NCBI GenBank assembly: GCA_007376265.1 | Contig: VMFW01000006.1 | Span: 10,930-74,929, forward strand | Reading direction: 5' to 3' | Origin: Parcubacteria group bacterium Gr01-1014_20 | GTDB lineage: Bacteria; Patescibacteriota; Minisyncoccia; UBA6257; 2-01-FULL-56-20 | DNA length: 64,000 nucleotides | In this document: positions 6,069 to 13,355 of the stretch, in pieces | How positions within the stretch are numbered: the stretch's first letter is position 1 | Layout: the number at the start of each line of letters is the position of its first letter | Notes under the pieces: model-generated | The model's input: only the letters and a program-made list of their open reading frames with translations | Told to the model about the DNA's origin: nothing | Database searches by the model: none | Translations under genes and position numbers: made by a program

Positions 6069-6932
6069 TTATTTGTCAATTTGGGCCGAAAAAAATTTCA
6101 AGCGGCTGTCCTCCGCGACGGTTTTTATGGTGCCATCTCGATCGGTTCTTAAAACTTTGAGGATGTCGGTTTTACCGAGTCGGGCGAGAGTTTCTTCGGT
6201 TGGATGGCCGTAGCGGTTATCCCCTACTTCGATAACGGCAATCTCAGGGTTAACATTTTTTAGGAACTCGTCACTTGAAGAATATTTTGAACCATGATGA
6301 GGAATTTTCAAGATGTCGGCTTTGAGGGCTGGGCCAAATTTTTGAACTAAATATTTCTCTAAATTTTGTCCGATATCGCCGGTTAGAAGAATTTTTAGAT
6401 TTCCGGTTTCGATTTTAGTTACAAGCGAGGTGTCGTTCAACTCGCCGCTTTGAATAAAGTTTTGATCGGGCGAGAGAATGTTAATTTTATTTTGCGCATT
6501 TTTAATTTTATCACCGGCAGTCAAAATAATAACCGGAATTTTCTTTTCCTTAATTTTGGCGATTAAATTTTCCCACTCCCTTAGTTCGACGCCACGTCCG
6601 TTAACAATGAAGGCGCCGACTTCGTAGCGCTCCAGGATTTCGTTAAAGCCATTGAAGTGGTCAAGTTGGGGGTGGGTAATGACGGCTAGATCTATGTAGC
6701 GATCGGTTTCGCCTAGGACTTTTTCGAGCTCAACCGTGACTTTTTTGGATGGTCCGGCGTCGGTCAAAATTTGAACACCCGTTGGAAATTGGACAAGAGT
6801 CGAGTCTCCCTGGCCGACGTCTAGAAAATATATTTTTGGCGAACCAGAACGATCTAAAAAAATTATTTGTTGCCAGACTAATAAATCTAGGCCGACCAGA
6901 GCCAAAAAGATTACCCAGCTAAGATTTTTCAT
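6069..6932 (-). CDS. comEC: ComEC C-terminal-like metallo-beta-lactamase domain protein (separate ORF)
   Basis: N-terminal TM helix, then YFLDVGQGDSTLV and HHGSKYSSS, which are MBL motifs typical of the ComEC/Rec2 C-terminus. Overlaps the upstream ORF by 14 bp. Confidence 0.75.
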   Translation of the reverse strand: MKNLSWVIFLALVGLDLLVWQQIIFLDRSGSPKIYFLDVGQGDSTLVQFPTGVQILTDAGPSKKVTVELEKVLGETDRYIDLAVITHPQLDHFNGFNEILERYEVGAFIVNGRGVELREWENLIAKIKEKKIPVIILTAGDKIKNAQNKINILSPDQNFIQSGELNDTSLVTKIETGNLKILLTGDIGQNLEKYLVQKFGPALKADILKIPHHGSKYSSSDEFLKNVNPEIAVIEVGDNRYGHPTEETLARLGKTDILKVLRTDRDGTIKTVAEDSRLKFFSAQIDK

Positions 6933-8370
6933 GATTTTTTAAAACAAGCGCTAGTAAGAACCCGTAGTAAATTATAAAGACAATGCTGTGATTTAGAAAC
7001 TGACTACCAGGAAGCGGTAGGTAAATCAACGAAAAAATTTTGATGACCGCAAGCTGATAAAAAGCAAGAAGGCTGAGTAATTGGGCAACGAAAAATCCCA
7101 AGAGGAATGAAATCGAACTTAGGGCTGACAGCAAGAACCCTAAAAACATTGTGAAGGGAATAGTAAGCAAGATGAAGGTGTTCGCGAAAATAGCGCTTAA
7201 AGAAAACTGATTGAAGTTCAAAATGAGGATTGGGATTACGGCGAGCTGAGCGGCGACGGTGGTTACGCCATTTTCTTGCCAGGCCAGGAAACTTTCCTCT
7301 TTCTTGTCTTTTACCCGAAGTAGTTTTTTTAAAACTGGCTCAAGGTAAACAATTCCAAGGAGACTTAGGAACGAGAGCTGAAAACCAATGTCAAAAGCCA
7401 AGACTCCGGGGTTAACTAGAACCATCACGAGGGCGGTTAGGATAATGATATGAAGGGTATCGTGGACCCGACCGATATGTCCGGCTAGCAAGATAAGAGA
7501 GCCCATAATGGCGGCTCGAACTACCGAAGCTTCACCACCGACCATAATGACAAAAAGAAAAATTAGTCCAAGGGTAATGTAGAATCGTTTCTGACGCGAG
7601 ACGAGTTTTTTTAGCGAGCGTTCAATGGCTAGGGCTAAAATGGCGATGTTGTATCCGGAGAGAGCTACAATGTGAGTCACTCCGCTTCTAGCCATATCCG
7701 TTTTCAATTTTTCAGTGAACTCGGATTTTTCGCCAAAGGTGATACCGGCCACCAGCGCGGCTTTGTCTCGACTAAGTTGTTTTTTGAATTGGCCGATGAG
7801 GTGGTTTTTTAGGCCGTAAAGTTGGGTTTTTAACCAATGGCCCTGATTTTTAGCTTGCACCTCAATTTTCGGGAAGAATGAAATGGGAGGCTGGTTTTTA
7901 AATTGGCTTTTTTCGATTTTGCCATCGAGTTTTACGATGTCGCCGTAATCAAAACGAATCAAGGCATCTGTAAGGACGGTAATTCTTCCATGTTCTGGAG
8001 CTTGGAGTTCGACAGTGAGTTTTTGGTAAGTTTCTTTTTCCTCGGGGTTTTTAGTGAGAACTCCGATTACGATTGATTTCTCGCTTATGGGTATATTTTC
8101 AGCGCGGTTGGTAAAATTAAAAAAGAAATAAAAATAGAAAAACCCAAGAATGAGAAACACAACGCTCCCGACAAAAAACATTCCCGCGCTTGGAAGGATA
8201 CGGGGATGTTTGCTGTTTTCTCCGATATTAATTTTAAAAAACCCTCGTAGAGTAAAAAGCCCAATTAGAAAAACTAAAGAGGTTAAATAAAAATTCCACC
8301 CACTTGAGGCCGCAAAAATACCTAGTAAAAAACTTAGCCCCCAATAGGTGACTTTTTGCCGAGTCGCCAT
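6919..8370 (-). CDS. comEC: ComEC/Rec2 N-terminal part (DUF4131 plus competence domain), polytopic membrane protein
   Basis: 483 aa with many TM helices and the competence-domain pattern (…[14 protein letters not shown]…). Directly upstream of, and overlapping, the MBL-domain ORF. Confidence 0.75.
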
Positions 8371-9023
8371 TCCTGGATTTTTTTATGATTGCCGGATAGG
8401 AGGATAGGTGGAACTTTCCAGCCCACGCCTTTTCCGGGTTTAAATTCTGCCGGTTTGGTGTAGGTTTGATACGAACCTTTGACTTCTTCAAGGGACTCAT
8501 ATTTACCCAAAAAACCGGGTAGATAACGGCTAACGGCTTCGATTAAGACCATAGCTGGTAGTTCACCGCCGGACAAGACATAGTCCCCGATTGAAATTTC
8601 CTCATCGGCGATGTGGCTTGACACTCTTTCATCGACACCTTCGTAGCGACCACAAATTAAAATTAGTTGACTATGTTTCGCTAAGCGCTTAGCGGTAAAA
8701 CTATCCAATTTTTTGCCTCGAATTGAAAAGAGGATGGTTCTCGAGTTGAGGCTTTTTTTGATTTTTTTTATTGCTTTGTAGATGGGCTCAACTTTTAAAA
8801 CCATTCCCGGGCCGCCGCCAAAGGGAGAGTCGTCGACTTTTTTGTGTCGGTCGGAACTGTACTTGCGAAGGTCGTGGGTTTTTACTTTTATCAACCGAGT
8901 TTTAAGAGCGCGAGCAAGCATGGATTCGTTGAGGTAAGAATCCAGGATTTTGGGGAAGATAGTGAGGATATCAAAGCTAACCCTATGTCTCTTCAAAGTT
9001 GCTTTCTTTTTTTTCAGTTCCAT
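8334..9023 (-). CDS. trmD: tRNA (guanine37-N1)-methyltransferase
   Basis: [18 protein letters not shown]…[11 protein letters not shown]…[23 protein letters not shown] are TrmD SPOUT motifs. The ORF extends to 9107, but the conserved N-terminus begins at the internal ATG at 9023 (MELKKKK). Confidence 0.85.
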
Positions 9024-10806
9024 TTTGGTGTCTATGGTGTTCAAGGAGGTTTTTTTCAATCGGAGTTTCCTCCTTTTTCTCGTCTGCGGCTCCCATGAGG
9101 GACTCACTGATCGAGCTTCTCAAATCGTCAAGATCAATTTCTATTTTGGGTGGGCGAGGCAATTCTCTGGGTTTTGGGGGGAGGATTGGTGCGGGTAGTA
9201 GATGTTCCCTCTTTTGAAAGGCCTGTGGAGTTGTAGCTACTTCTTTTGGTTTGAGAACATTGATTCGGGGCTCCTCGGAGGCGGGTCGGTTTTCTGGTTT
9301 GGGAAGTGGTTTAACTTCCGGTTTTGTTTCTACTCGGGTTTGGGGGGTGGTGGGTTTGGGCCAGGATGGAACGGGCCAGTTCGGGCCCACTGGTTTTTGA
9401 GTTTTCTCTTGATATTTAGGCTCCAATCCCTTAGTCGGTTTTGGCTTTAGAATTTCTGAGAGAGATTGTTCGTCGCGCCGGCTAATTTTTTCGTCAACGG
9501 TTTGCATGTCGGCATTCCATTCGGCGCTGATTCTTTCCTCAACTATTTTCCGAGGAGTGCCATATTTTTTTTGCGAATTTTCTATAATAACATCTCGGTA
9601 GGAAATGAGGGGTTGTCTCGGCGGCGGAATAGTTTCGGCCGAAAAAGGTCGTTGGGCCATGCCATCAATCATTAACTTAAGATAAACATTGTATTTGGCT
9701 AGGTTGACCAGATCGTTTTGAACAAATTCCGGCATAAATTCTTTTTCTAAGAACTCTCCGTCAACGGCGCCAACTCGGAAGGTGATCAAGGTGCCAACGT
9801 TACCAAAGATGGCGTCGCGGACGTGGGTATTTTCGCCACCATCTAACTGGCCTATGTACTGGTGGGCCAGAGTGAGACTCAAGTGATATTTTCTAGCTTC
9901 GGACAATATATTGGCAAATGAGTCCGTAGCGAAGTTTTGAAACTCATCTACGTATAGGAAGAAATCGCGGCGCTTTTCTTCGGGCACGTCTACTCGAGAC
10001 ATAGCAGCTAGTTGGAGGCGGGTGATGATCATGGCTCCCAAAAGAGCGGAGTTGTCCTCACCCATACGGCCCTTCGATAGATTTACGACGAGGATTTTCC
10101 CCTCATCCATTATTTTTCTCATTTTTAACACTGAACTCGATTGACCAAGAATATTTCTAATGAGCGGATTGGAAACGAATTGGCCGACTTTGTTTTGGAT
10201 GGCGGCTAAGGCTTCGGTTTCGAAACGTTGATTGTAGCGGGCAAATTCTTCCGCCCAAAAGGCTTTAATGACAGGATCTTTAAGGCCGGAAACTATTTTT
10301 TTTCGATATTCTGGCTGTGAAAACATACGCATAATTCCAAGCAGGGTAGAGTTGGGGTATTCGAGAAGCGCCAGGAGGGTGTTGTTTAAAATGTATTCCA
10401 TTCTGGCAGACCAGGCGTCGGGCCAGATTTTTTTAAAAACACCCATAATGCCTGAAGCTACCAGGTGGCGAAACTCATTGCCAACTTGTTCGAGCGGATT
10501 GAAAGCGATCGGAAACTCGAGGTCAGCCGGGTTCACGTAAATCACGTCGTTCACCCTTTCTTCGGGGACAAAATCCAGAACCCTTTCAGCAAATTCACCG
10601 TGAGGATCAACAACACCCACTCCCCTCCCCGCGCGAATGTCATCGATGGCCATATTTTCAAGTAAGGTTGATTTCCCGGAGCCGGTTTTTCCAACGACAT
10701 AAATATGGCGGCGGCGATCGTCGAGTTTAATGCCGAAAACCTTTTTGGAGCTCCTGAAATTGGCTTGACCCAATATGGTTAATTCTTCCTGATCTTTTTT
10801 ATTCAT
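8983..10806 (-). CDS. FtsK/HerA/TraD(VirD4)-superfamily P-loop ATPase with a Pro/Lys-rich low-complexity C-terminal tail
   Basis: Walker [12 protein letters not shown] near residue 40, a DPHGE motif, and Walker [12 protein letters not shown]. The C-terminal roughly 170 aa are a Pro-rich, disordered-looking tail. There is an 8-bp overlap with the upstream membrane-protein gene. Confidence 0.7.
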
Positions 10807-12220
10807 ATTGTCTTTCGTCTTCTAGGAGTGGTAAATTTGGTGGCGGAGTTCCTTTTTTAGATTCGATTCTCTGGAGTTGAGGTGAGGTAACTGCGGTGAT
10901 TGGGAAGTGACAAATAGTGGCCAACTCCTCTATGTTTAAAATGGGAATTGGTTTTTTGGGAGACATTGATAGATCGCGATAACGTTCAAAAATTACGCGC
11001 CGTCGATAATCCAGCCGGGTTTCCTTGAAAAGGCCGTGAACAGCCGCTGTCATGGTCGGTTTATAGGGTCTTAGGAGGTTCAAATTTTGAGTGCTAAATT
11101 GCCTAAAGACACCCATAACGCCCATAACATTATCACGACTGAAGCTGTCGCGATGGTCGACGTAGATAAAACGTACGGTAGTGTCGAATCCAAGTTTAGC
11201 CGTTTTCCTTTCGATGCCCTCGAGGGCTTCTTTTTCTGTCGGTGAAAGCACGAGAAATTTGAAGTCATTATTCTTCCGTTCTTCTTTCTTTGCTTCGAGC
11301 GATGGGTGTTCGAATGGGGAGCGAACGGCCTCCTGAAGAGTAACTCCGAAGAGTGGAGTAGAGGGACTTTTAGCTTTTTTATCTCGACCCATCATTTTGT
11401 TTACCAGCTCGTCGCACTCGTCCTTCCAATCCCCTCCGGTGGGGCGAATCAAGAACTGAACCCAGATTTGTTCTTCGGATTTTAATTTCGACATCAGTTC
11501 AGTTAGAGCCGAGATTGGATCAACCCGACGTTCTTCGACAGGATCTTCAAATGAGATATAAGTTCGGATGGGGTAGCAGCTTTCTTTTTGAAGGACGAAT
11601 TCAAGGCCATGAGTCTGGAAAACTTTATTGGGCAGGACTTTAGGCATCTTTTTGACGTAGTCATCCTCTGGGTCCACTTCGCTTACTTCCGCGTTGGGAT
11701 ATTGTGAGTAGATAGCGGATTCCATTAGGTTTTGGAATTGAGCTGGGGTTCTTAGGTAAAGATGAATTTCGCCGCCAAGGCTGACTAATTCAAAGGCCAT
11801 TGAATACTCCCCTTTCCCCTCCCAGTGGATTTCCAAGAAACGCAGGCCGTAAGAATAAGGAGCGTGCGCGGCCGCGAAAATTTGTTCCATGGCTCTTGGT
11901 GTTTGCAGGATATCTTTAGGAATTTTTATTTCAAGCAACTTCCATCTGATTGCGACAAGCCATTTGAAATGAATGTAATAGTTCCACCAATACCAGAAAA
12001 AAGGCGCAAAGAAAGCGGGCAAAACAACCCACCAAACGTTGCTCCAGATCATCCCCATGTTTTTAAGGATCATTACGACCGGTTCCGGCAAATTAGGAAT
12101 CATTTCATTAATTTTAGCAAACTGTTTCAAAACGAAAAAGGGCCAAAAAATTTTAGGCCCTTTCTCTGTATTTACTTGATGATTTTGGTTACGCTTCCCG
12201 GATCTGGTAAGTCCCGTCAC
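10799..12220 (-). CDS. membrane protein (2 N-terminal TM helices plus a large soluble domain), partner of the downstream ATPase
   Basis: The N-terminus VVMILKNMGMIWSNVWWVVLPAFFAPFFWYWWNYYIHFKWLVAI gives two TM helices. The remaining roughly 380 aa are hydrophilic. Translationally coupled to the ATPase gene. Confidence 0.6.
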   Translation of the reverse strand: MTGLTRSGKRNQNHQVNTEKGPKIFWPFFVLKQFAKINEMIPNLPEPVVMILKNMGMIWSNVWWVVLPAFFAPFFWYWWNYYIHFKWLVAIRWKLLEIKIPKDILQTPRAMEQIFAAAHAPYSYGLRFLEIHWEGKGEYSMAFELVSLGGEIHLYLRTPAQFQNLMESAIYSQYPNAEVSEVDPEDDYVKKMPKVLPNKVFQTHGLEFVLQKESCYPIRTYISFEDPVEERRVDPISALTELMSKLKSEEQIWVQFLIRPTGGDWKDECDELVNKMMGRDKKAKSPSTPLFGVTLQEAVRSPFEHPSLEAKKEERKNNDFKFLVLSPTEKEALEGIERKTAKLGFDTTVRFIYVDHRDSFSRDNVMGVMGVFRQFSTQNLNLLRPYKPTMTAAVHGLFKETRLDYRRRVIFERYRDLSMSPKKPIPILNIEELATICHFPITAVTSPQLQRIESKKGTPPPNLPLLEDERQYE

Positions 12221-13223
12221 CCAAGCGTTCGAAGAATTTTCGGTTTTGGAGGTTAACGAGAATAGTGTTTTGTTTTAAGATCCTCTCCTTTTGAACAGCT
12301 AAGGAAATTTGCTTAGTGTTCATTGGTCCGTTTTGCTTCAAAATGCGCTTGATCACCTCCTGAACCGTACCGGGCTTAAAACCCTTTTCGGTTAGTCCGT
12401 AGATGCCCCGACCAACCAGAACAAACCGGTTGTCCTTGATGAGCTCATTGTGAACCGTTGGAGCCAGGGCAACTTTCTTGTCGAACTTAACTTCGTTGAT
12501 AAGGCTCGTGATTTGCTCAAAGTGCAGGGGTTCGGCGGACTTTTTGAGCACCAGGTAAATTCGATCGCGAATATTTTGCGGCTTAATTTCCGGCCATTCG
12601 GCGAGTCCAGTATCACTGTAGGGATTTGAGAAAACTTTCTTGGAGATGGCGACGAAATTCCTGGCAGAATTCTCGTTGATTTTTTCCGCTTTGATAAATT
12701 TAACGAAAAAGTTTTCGTAGTTTCCGGCCAACACTGCCTCTTTCTGTGGTTTCAGGAATTTGACCAATTGCGCGACAAATTTATTAAGATTGTCCAGATT
12801 TTTTCGATCTTGAAAGTAAAAAGATCGATAGTTCTGGTCTTCGTCGTGAAAGTGAAAATTTTTTGAAGATTCAAGCAGTAAGGCTAACTGATTTTTAGTG
12901 ATGCTGTCATCACCAGAGTTGAGTTGTTTTAATAGAATGTCTTCGCTAATAACGCCACCCACTGATTCCAGAGATTTCTTGCCTTTGCTTAAAATGGCTT
13001 GGCAATCTTTGTTCGTTGCGATTTTCTGTTTAAGCAAATTTAAACCAGCCGCTTCGATTTGACGGACACGTTCTCTGGTAATGCCGTATTTGTTACCGAG
13101 CGCGGCTAGAGTTTGCGGCTCTGAATTTGGCCCAGAAAGGCCAAAACGACCAACAATAACCTCCCTCCCCCTAGGGCTTAGGTCGGCAAAGATTGAATTA
13201 AAGACTTTTGTGATTGCACCCAT
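12189..13223 (-). CDS. protein with an N-terminal sigma-70 region-4-like HTH domain followed by about 270 aa of unknown function
   Basis: Residues about 15-70, LSPRGREVIVGRFGL…TLAALGNKYGITRERVRQIEAAGLNLLKQ, match sigma-70 regions 4.1/4.2 (compare LTxRExxVLxLRFGL…TRERIRQIEAKALRKL). No regions 2 or 3 are detectable. Confidence 0.6.
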   Translation of the reverse strand: MGAITKVFNSIFADLSPRGREVIVGRFGLSGPNSEPQTLAALGNKYGITRERVRQIEAAGLNLLKQKIATNKDCQAILSKGKKSLESVGGVISEDILLKQLNSGDDSITKNQLALLLESSKNFHFHDEDQNYRSFYFQDRKNLDNLNKFVAQLVKFLKPQKEAVLAGNYENFFVKFIKAEKINENSARNFVAISKKVFSNPYSDTGLAEWPEIKPQNIRDRIYLVLKKSAEPLHFEQITSLINEVKFDKKVALAPTVHNELIKDNRFVLVGRGIYGLTEKGFKPGTVQEVIKRILKQNGPMNTKQISLAVQKERILKQNTILVNLQNRKFFERLGDGTYQIREA

Positions 13224-13240: not shown

Positions 13241-13269
13241 ATTGTATACTGACTTGAAAAATAAGTCAA
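13241..13269 (-). promoter_or_regulatory. sigma-70-type promoter TTGACT-N17-TACAAT for the 12189-13223 operon, with the -35 element embedded in a 6-bp inverted repeat
   Basis: The minus strand reads TTGACTtatttttcaagtcagtaTACAAT, ending about 12 nt before the ATG at 13223. TGACTT-N7-AAGTCA forms an inverted repeat overlapping the -35. Confidence 0.45.
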
Positions 13270-13355
13270 ATAGTGACACTGGGTATAAACCTATCTGACT
13301 CCCTATTCTACTACGGCTTGGTTCTTTTGTCAAGTAGGGGGTAACTAAGGTAGGT

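Follow-up and report, generated by a model that had tools for sequence, protein, structure and literature searches.

SigHARE, a family of predicted DNA-binding proteins in CPR bacteria that joins a primary-sigma-type region 4 to tandem winged helices

Why would a bacterium keep the domain with which sigma factors read the -35 promoter element in a protein that has nothing else of a sigma factor? The question is raised by a gene on the minus strand of a 64-kb stretch of DNA from Parcubacteria group bacterium Gr01-1014_20 (the window), whose 344-aa product begins with a sigma-70 region 4 and continues for some 270 residues of a different kind. We refer to this protein by a working name coined here, SigHARE. 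Its N-terminus starts MGAITKVFNSIFADLSPRGREVIVGRFGL… and includes …YGITRERVRQIEAAGLNLLKQ, matching the peptide quoted in an earlier note on this DNA, and the protein is 100% identical to an entry annotated as a hypothetical protein of Parcubacteria group bacterium Gr01-1014_20. On the evidence of profile searches and structural models, SigHARE is a non-sigma protein, predicted to bind DNA, in which a primary-sigma-type domain 4 is followed by four tandem winged helices. With moderate confidence, we read it as a general transcription factor or RNA polymerase (RNAP)-accessory factor of the Candidate Phyla Radiation (CPR), likely essential and predicted to read -35-like DNA without being a sigma factor.

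Region 4 and the winged helices of SigHARE

Pfam Sigma70_r4 (PF04545) matched aa 13-65 of SigHARE with an E value of 1.3e-11 (44 bits against a cut-off of 24), and the best NCBIfam matches were to the C-terminal ~60 positions of the RpoD, RpoS and MzaA models. When the Protein Data Bank (PDB) was searched with a profile of 120 family members, only sigmaA, RpoD, RpoS and HrdB chains were found, over query residues ~5-77 and with a best E of 4e-15; among the 60 matches listed, all were group 1 or group 2 sigma factors. Comparison of the AlphaFold2 (AF2) model with region 4 of sigmaA (1ku3, 1ku7, 7kug) by Foldseek gave a root-mean-square deviation (rmsd) of 1.0-1.1 Å over 56-60 residues at ~40% identity, and with 6onu included the rmsd was 1.0-2.1 Å over 54-62 residues. 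The fold is like that of sigmaA domain 4, for example in 1KU7, in which region 4 of T. aquaticus sigmaA is bound to -35 DNA. Like region 4 of primary sigma factors, the SigHARE domain has the RFG(L/I) motif of region 4.1 and the TRER(V/I)RQIE recognition helix. The earlier note had described a textbook sigma region 4; the description holds, and the type can now be given as that of the primary sigma factors. Helix-turn-helix (HTH) domains of the LuxR/GerE family and of region 4 in extracytoplasmic function (ECF) sigma factors share the tri-/tetra-helical fold class with the N-terminal domain, but neither the GerE/LuxR profile nor the ECF-type Sigma70_r4_2 profile of Pfam matched SigHARE at E <= 1. 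A LuxR/GerE identity for this domain was rejected on the lack of a GerE match and on the listed PDB profile matches, which were all to sigma factors.

The base-specific contacts of sigma70 with the -35 element are made by R584, E585 and R588 (PMC2613000), and promoter DNA binding by isolated peptides of sigma70 region 4 has been described (Dombroski 1996, as cited in PMC2613000). Residues R50, E51, R54 and Q55 of SigHARE correspond to R584, E585, R588 and Q589 of sigma70, and were at least 95% conserved in 144 representatives of the family's 50%-identity clusters, as was the whole TRERVRQIE helix. Nothing that we found conflicts with the suggestion that the protein might be a -35-binding transcription factor. 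The basic patch with which sigma70 region 4 contacts activators, which we take to be K593/R596/K597/R599, is not kept in SigHARE, because the matching positions are A59/N62/L63/K65.

The arrangement around this domain is unlike that of a primary sigma factor. Region 4 of SigHARE is N-terminal and stands without regions 1.2, 2 and 3, and its recognition helix does not lead to the end of the protein, as in sigmaA, but continues into further helices and an array of winged helices. Neither Sigma70_r2 nor Sigma70_r3 matched the whole protein at E <= 1 or its separate segments at E <= 10, and the structural matches to full-length sigma chains spanned region 4 only (~56-77 columns), which agrees with the earlier observation of an N-terminal region 4 in the absence of regions 2 and 3. 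Because the core-binding and -10-melting regions are missing, SigHARE cannot be a sigma factor. Permuted versions of regions 2 and 3 within the remaining ~270 aa were ruled out by the profile, PDB and AF2/Foldseek comparisons; in the AF2 model this remainder has the beta-hairpins typical of winged helices, in contrast to the all-alpha folds of sigma2 and sigma3. A search of the 64-kb window for a second sigma-like gene found none.

The same ~270 aa had been described as being of unknown function. That they lack regions 2 and 3 was borne out, but their fold is a known one, with four predicted winged helices that include two HARE-HTH domains. The full-length AF2 model, made from the 120-member family alignment (pLDDT 91.3, pTM 0.77), contains four H-(E)-H-H-E-E units past region 4, at aa 72-138, 139-214, 215-282 and 283-344. 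The HARE-HTH profile (PF05066) scored 32.1 bits against a cut-off of 25.9 over two stretches, the first of which was aa 222-278; when the two copies were tested on separate segments, the E values were 3.6e-4 and 8.9e-4 (the latter for the second copy, at ~aa 289-343). TIGR04567, the model of the RNAP delta subunit, matched aa 220-279 with an E of 1e-5 and 25.6 bits, below its equivalog cut-off of 42. Modelled separately with AF2 (pLDDT 84.7), aa 200-344 matched tandem winged-helix arrays in Foldseek, among them the SelB C-terminus, UFL1/DDRGK1, ScpB and Rpc5, while single domains matched the delta chains 9a6y_A and 8x6g_E with a probability of 0.99-1.0 and an E of 0.05-0.09. The full-length model likewise returned sigma region 4 together with tandem winged-helix arrays. 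No Pfam match was obtained for domain A (aa 72-138), a PDB sequence search with the HARE-HTH pair found no meaningful relatives, and the Pfam scan gave no signal of the C-terminal domain of the RNAP alpha subunit.

The delta subunit of Firmicutes (RpoE) has a single, N-terminal HARE-HTH followed by a long, acidic and disordered tail. SigHARE is like delta in having the HARE-HTH winged helix. It is unlike delta in having two copies, both C-terminal, in stopping at aa 344, and in the charge of its C-terminal domains, which are net basic (+3 and +7) where delta has its acidic tail. Aravind and Iyer are said to have described bacterial HARE-HTH proteins that mix features of the RNAP alpha subunit and of sigma; like SigHARE, these would hold a HARE-HTH and a sigma-derived HTH in one chain, with a predicted link to transcription, and the CPR family may be among them.

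Spread, conservation and a counterpart in Southlakia epibionticum

SigHARE belongs to a large family. A protein search yielded at least 7981 homologous clusters at 90% identity, and a search of 1.84 billion representatives yielded 565 clusters (50% identity) at E <= 1e-30, whose listed members were mostly 320-400 aa long and aligned end to end. Nearly all of the 120 family members listed were ~343 aa in length, and most had both PF04545 and PF05066. Members were named in Paceibacterota, Saccharibacteria, Kaiserbacteria, Doudnabacteria, Falkowbacteria, Peregrinibacteria and Gracilibacteria; the sole label seen from outside the CPR was one 'Gammaproteobacteria' metagenome-assembled genome, in which the member probably lies on a mis-binned contig. 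Identity to SigHARE was ~50-60% within Paceibacteria, and values between CPR classes were 33-41% (34-40% for the saccharibacterial members L003, L007, L013 and L015); within Peregrinibacteria and Gracilibacteria identity was 72-79%. Region 4 was present in 83 of the 84 related open reading frames (ORFs) that had an intact 5' end. The search for the same architecture in related genomes, which the earlier note had proposed as a check, thus found one uniform architecture across CPR classes.

The names given to these proteins are mixed: PROKKA calls them 'RpoS', JGI 'RNAP delta subunit' or 'Zn-ribbon and HTH regulator', and NCBI 'sigma factor-like HTH DNA-binding protein'. The labels that pipelines assign automatically (RpoS, delta subunit, generic HTH protein) are wrong for this family. 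An origin in a defence system or a phage was also considered and rejected, as the matches in PADLOC, PHROGs and phage genomes were only at the level of region 4. The sole PADLOC match of SigHARE was MzaA (aa 8-68, the region 4 segment, 26 bits), and no full-length defence match was found.

Conservation along the protein, expressed as the mean frequency of the top residue across the 144 representatives, was highest at the two ends. Region 4 averaged 0.49, HARE-HTH 1 0.69 and HARE-HTH 2 0.54, compared with 0.33 for domain A and 0.35 for the long helix plus domain B (together aa 72-214). HARE-HTH 1 is the best-conserved part of SigHARE, with 16 positions at 95% or more and the motif TVHNELIKDxRFVLVGRGxYxL. 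Because conservation is bipolar in this way, we see two functional heads kept apart by a scaffold (aa 72-214), within which the long helix and domain B (aa 139-214) are likely a spacer or scaffold.

Experimental data on an apparent counterpart come from a genome-wide insertion screen. SEML1_0294 of Southlakia epibionticum ML1 (Wang et al. 2023, Cell, Tables S1 and S2; PMC10633639) is a gene of 1050 bp encoding 349 aa, with PF04545 at aa 27-72 and PF05066 at aa 225-283, and DPAM divided the protein into tri-helical, winged, winged and winged domains (aa 156-215 winged; aa 216-285 e7f75L1, 'winged'). The family is marked as core and Patescibacteria-enriched, and its PROKKA name is RpoS (PMC10633639). 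In transposon sequencing (Tn-seq) the gene was scored ES/ES/ES (essential at each of the three time points), with 24 insertions in the input DNA and 1, 1 and 2 after passaging (PMC10633639). The adjoining SEML1_0293 encodes a 921-aa type IV coupling protein (T4CP) with its ATPase domain from ~aa 400 and is non-essential (PMC10633639); these data suggest that it is a fusion of T4CP with DUF8128, the family of the membrane protein encoded beside SigHARE. The terms 'sigma factor', 'HARE' and 'transcription' were not found in the main text of that paper (PMC10633639).

SigHARE shares the features of the SEML1_0294 family, namely a length of ~345 aa, an N-terminal PF04545, PF05066 at ~aa 220-285 and a T4CP neighbour. 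It differs in that SEML1_0294 comes from another CPR class and that DUF8128 and T4CP apparently form one protein beside it. We regard SEML1_0294 as the apparent ortholog of SigHARE, and through it the family appears to be essential in the sole CPR species with Tn-seq.

The same genome has a complete RpoD with regions 1.2, 2, 3 and 4 (SEML1_0063), which is essential (PMC10633639), and the CPR RpoDs of L059 (345 aa) and L053 (479 aa) likewise have full regions 1.2-4 with a canonical region 4 of their own. Because CPR RpoDs carry region 4, SigHARE is not a substitute for a missing sigma4, and the idea that it supplies one was abandoned. A further gene of S. epibionticum, SEML1_0582, encodes a small 'Sigma70 r4 domain-containing protein' with RecX-like structural matches (PMC10633639), and CPR bacteria may have more than one detached protein of the region 4 type.

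Proposed role in transcription

How might a general transcription or RNAP-accessory factor of this composition work? In the mechanism that we propose, SigHARE would be made from its own near-consensus sigma70-type promoter. Its sigma4 head would bind TTGAC(A)-type, -35-like DNA as sigmaA does, or the RNAP beta-flap, which is the normal holder of sigma4, or both. The conserved HARE-HTH head would make a second contact, either with RNAP beta', as the HARE-HTH of Firmicute delta does, or with DNA, and the winged-helix and long-helix domains of aa 72-214 would act as a spacer between the two. The DNA target, the RNAP contact and the regulatory role are all inferred. An invariant partner, either RNAP or a universal -35 element, is favoured over species-specific operators because both heads are invariant and because the recognition helix of HARE-HTH 1 carries the invariant acidic residues E260 and D264. 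In its proposed role only, SigHARE would resemble CarD and RbpA of Actinobacteria, which are essential, phylum-restricted, non-sigma proteins that touch both RNAP and promoter DNA and work at the majority of promoters; it has no relationship to them in sequence or fold, and the analogy is inferential.

Several points weigh against this reading. A protein that read the TTGACA of sigmaA would rival the holoenzyme at every promoter, so that some reason for its tolerance would be needed, for example a composite site or binding on RNAP. The HARE-HTH domains resemble delta only weakly, both in Foldseek (E 0.05-0.09) and with TIGR04567 (below cut-off), and SigHARE lacks the acidic tail by which delta function is defined. 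Around the -35 of the family's promoters, further TTGAC/GTCAA motifs were not enriched (29%, versus 20% of control promoters, p=0.30). SEML1_0294 is called an apparent ortholog on its length, domain coordinates and synteny, as given in supplementary tables. Finally, the near-invariant adjacency to DUF8128 and T4CP genes could mean that the primary role is local or non-transcriptional.

A bolder form of the proposal can be offered only tentatively, as we think it rather unlikely. Here SigHARE would be an unrecognised essential component of CPR transcription, providing a second sigma4 in trans that is anchored to RNAP via its delta-like HARE-HTH and serves as a bridging initiation factor or subunit; it may in addition link the recognition of promoters or other DNA to the orphan DUF8128/VirD4-like translocase, whose genes adjoin its own in nearly all CPR loci sampled.

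Neighbouring genes, promoters and competing readings

The features of the locus are collected in Table 1. On the minus strand, secD and secF are followed by SigHARE, DUF8128, the VirD4/TraD-like ATPase, trmD, comEC, a metallo-beta-lactamase ORF, amidohydrolase, ftsW and murG, in that order. Context was sampled in 96 related loci, 16 from reference genomes and 80 from metagenomes. DUF8128 lay directly downstream of SigHARE on the same strand in 73 of 78 loci and a T4CP-like ATPase no more than 3.5 kb downstream in 44 of 50, while secF was directly upstream in 45 of 59. DUF8128 and the ATPase are fused into one protein in L012, in L158 and in the viral family PHROG 5156 (an 824-aa profile). These fusions fit a role of DUF8128 as the membrane anchor (N-terminal half) of a split coupling-protein-like ATPase, and DUF8128 is probably this membrane-anchoring half. 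A survey of 2918 Patescibacteria genomes counted 5713 VirD4-like T4CPs, of which 148 were near virB4, and proposed exaptation (PMC12102498); the SigHARE gene string is one of the genomic settings in which these orphan ATPases reside. Together, the neighbourhood and the Tn-seq data suggest that SigHARE is functionally tied to a putative DNA-translocating module of DUF8128 and the VirD4-like ATPase and that its essential role exceeds that tie.

Table 1. Features of the SigHARE locus, with positions in the window
Feature	Position	Strand	Basis or remarks
SigHARE gene	12189..13223	(-)	ATG start, 344 aa; sigma-r4 / winged-helix / HARE-HTH protein
Sigma-70 region 4 (4.1 + 4.2), aa 13-65	13029..13187	(-)	Pfam, PDB profile, Foldseek
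Recognition helix T49-R-E-R-V-R-Q-I-E57	13053..13079	(-)	Inside region 4
Winged-helix-like domain A, aa 72-138	12810..13010	(-)	AF2 H-E-H-H-E-E, pLDDT ~90
41-residue helix + winged-helix-like domain B, aa 139-214	12582..12809	(-)	AF2 H140-180, H184-193, beta-hairpin
HARE-HTH domain 1, aa 215-282	12378..12581	(-)	Pfam PF05066, TIGR04567, Foldseek
HARE-HTH domain 2, aa 283-344	12192..12377	(-)	Pfam PF05066 on isolated segment; AF2 winged-helix pattern
Proximal sigma70-type promoter TTGACT-17-TACAAT	13241..13269	(-)	10/12; -10 ends 17 nt before ATG
Distal promoter-like site TTGACA-17-TAGAAT	13305..13333	(-)	11/12; 64 nt upstream of proximal, better score
Inverted repeat TGACTT-N7-AAGTCA	13250..13268	(.)	Overlaps proximal -35
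Terminator-like hairpin + U-tract	12122..12166	(-)	11-bp stem, -18 kcal/mol centroid, z = -2.5, 23 nt past stop
DUF8128-family membrane protein	10799..12103	(-)	L001 homolog carries PF26449 DUF8128
VirD4/TraD-like ATPase (T4CP, HerA/FtsK-type), without own membrane anchor	8983..10806	(-)	Pfam TrwB_AAD_bind, DUF87, T4SS-DNA_transf

The start of DUF8128 bears on how these genes are transcribed. Homolog alignments start near residue 10-25 of the product read from ATG 12103, which is probably the true start, and the GTG at 12220 is probably an over-extension of the ORF that accounts for its apparent 32-nt overlap with SigHARE. A canonical promoter of the form TTGACN-16/18-TAnnnT preceded the SigHARE gene in 65 of 83 related loci and reached 10/12 or better in 59 of them, and a hairpin with a T-run was found within 130 nt of the SigHARE stop codon in 44 of 95. 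Because it has its own promoters and a terminator-like hairpin, and because DUF8128 probably starts at 12103, SigHARE is largely its own transcription unit and heads an operon at most through read-through. The earlier note had placed it at the head of a comEC/ATPase operon. The ATPase is indeed a neighbour; comEC, which in the window is four genes downstream behind trmD, follows in only 6 related loci and was rejected as a conserved partner, and the partners that are conserved are DUF8128 and the T4CP-like ATPase.

The neighbouring genes showed some further features. In the window comEC is split over 6069-8370 (-) into overlapping ORFs for DUF4131 plus Competence (6919..8370) and for the metallo-beta-lactamase (6069..6932), and this two-ORF arrangement recurs in L015 and L114. 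The tail of the VirD4-like ATPase, ~170 aa long, is of low complexity, with much Pro, Lys and Glu (window 8983-9500, minus strand), and the ATPase matches PADLOC 'mad8', of a methylation-associated defence system, with an E of 3.5e-18, HerA models being weaker. Since the 3' end of the ATPase gene overlaps the long (GTG) trmD ORF at 8334..9107 by 125 nt, the start of trmD is probably further downstream.

Could SigHARE simply regulate the genes beside it? As a local activator or repressor, it would bind through region 4 and the winged helices and control the adjacent DUF8128 and T4CP genes, as well as comEC in some lineages. The same-strand linkage described above is kept across CPR classes at 33-40% identity, and a separate unit with its own strong promoter, ended by a hairpin in ~45% of loci, is a layout typical of a regulator beside its target. 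Promoter-like sites reached 10/12 in only 13 of 82 gaps before DUF8128, versus 59 of 83 upstream of SigHARE, so that the sites before DUF8128, which rarely have a good -35, could need an activator. The apparent ortholog, however, is essential in S. epibionticum, where the T4CP is dispensable. A pure activator of these genes would not be essential, while a repressor of a toxic product is a possible way in which a local regulator would still fit. The recognition residues are invariant and the same as those of sigmaA, whereas dedicated regulators are usually lineage-specific there; no conserved operator-like motif was found in the gaps, whose repeats differ by locus; and in L012, from Peregrinibacteria, 5.7 kb separates SigHARE from the fused gene for DUF8128 and T4CP. 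We consider a purely local regulator possible but doubtful.

The gaps themselves are varied. Between SigHARE and DUF8128, short tandem repeats followed by inverted copies were seen in L111, L085, L108, L123, L134, L145 and L154 and look like long-stem terminators; in L111 the repeats are (ATTGAC)x4 … (GTCAAA)x5, which are TTGAC-type motifs, and the repeat sequences vary by locus. The gaps before DUF8128 (L003, L004, L014, L086-L088, L102, L105, L133, L143 and others) mostly have an extended -10 (TGnTATAAT-like) but lack a good -35. Upstream of SigHARE, no more than 5-10 nt separate the end of the -10 from the ATG in L001, L082, L083, L096, L106, L110, L113, L119, L120 and L146, which suggests leaderless or near-leaderless mRNAs in these relatives.

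The promoter of SigHARE had also been said to have its -35 within an inverted repeat, from which autoregulation was suggested. The palindrome is there and overlaps the TTGACT, with a chance probability of ~0.04 in flank shuffles. In the close relative L083, the -35 and the following TTATTTT are kept and the second arm is missing. Inverted repeats overlapped the -35 in 9 of 83 promoters of relatives, against 3.0 expected from mononucleotide shuffles. Compared with control promoters in the same loci, inverted repeats with arms of at least 6 bp were not enriched (6/71 vs 2/65, p=0.28), and inverted TTGAC/GTCAA copies alone occurred in 12.7% of family and 10.6% of control promoters. A conserved operator palindrome at the -35 was rejected on its absence from L083 and its lack of enrichment over control promoters, and autoregulation through a conserved operator is not supported, although it may still occur in this particular genome.

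A non-transcriptional role can be drawn by analogy, in which SigHARE would be a DNA-recognition or loading adaptor of the DUF8128/T4CP translocase in DNA uptake, export or segregation, much as relaxosome accessory proteins serve TraD/VirD4 or as the winged-helix gamma domain serves FtsK. The conserved three-gene synteny would fit such an adaptor, as would the mostly orphan state of Patescibacteria T4CPs (148 of 5713 near virB4; PMC12102498), the presence of comEC further along this string of genes, both in the window and in the 6 related loci, and the resemblance of the C-terminal part to the nucleic-acid-binding arrays of SelB and ScpB. We nevertheless judge it improbable, as the apparent ortholog is essential while the T4CP of S. 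epibionticum is dispensable, and the sigma4 head has kept the exact promoter-reading residues, which point to promoters.

The earlier note had offered a sigma mimic or decoy as another possibility, and a free sigma4 that occupied the tip of the RNAP beta-flap or the -35 element would oppose initiation by sigmaA. The domain belongs to the primary-sigma type and shares ~40% identity with region 4 of sigmaA, and a normal RpoD is present in this type of genome as a competitor. A pure decoy, however, is a poor fit with the Tn-seq essentiality of the apparent ortholog, since a factor that only inhibits would probably not be essential, nor be kept universally by genomes that have undergone reduction. 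Because the HARE-HTH head is even more conserved than region 4, SigHARE does more than mimic sigma4; and the presumed activator-contact patch of sigma70 is not conserved. There is, in our estimate, little likelihood that SigHARE is a decoy. That it is a genuine alternative sigma factor, in keeping with the RpoS label of some pipelines, can be dismissed, because the NCBIfam RpoS and RpoD models match through region 4 only, over their last ~60 positions and with 30-48 bits against full-length cut-offs of 240-800, and because Sigma70_r2 and Sigma70_r3 are absent from a remainder made up of winged helices.

We thus return to SigHARE as a CPR general transcription or RNAP-accessory factor. The combination of domains is already visible in databases, and the CPR family is an unremarked row in a Tn-seq table. 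In the literature that could be searched, we found no characterisation of the SigHARE family or of DUF8128, and full-text searches of it yielded nothing on the transcription machinery of Patescibacteria/CPR. By published accounts, these bacteria represent more than a quarter of bacterial diversity, and the regulation of their cell cycle and differentiation is described in one review as unknown. In SigHARE a -35-reading domain of the housekeeping type has been detached from sigma, joined to delta-like winged helices and held under strong purifying selection CPR-wide. Cultivated, transformable Saccharibacteria exist, so that direct testing is feasible. Should the family prove to act generally in initiation or as a subunit of RNAP, it would, like CarD/RbpA or delta, extend the transcription machinery of bacteria in a lineage-defining way, and it would give a first functional handle on thousands of orphan VirD4-like ATPases in the CPR. 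There is a real chance that SigHARE is such a lineage-defining component of transcription.

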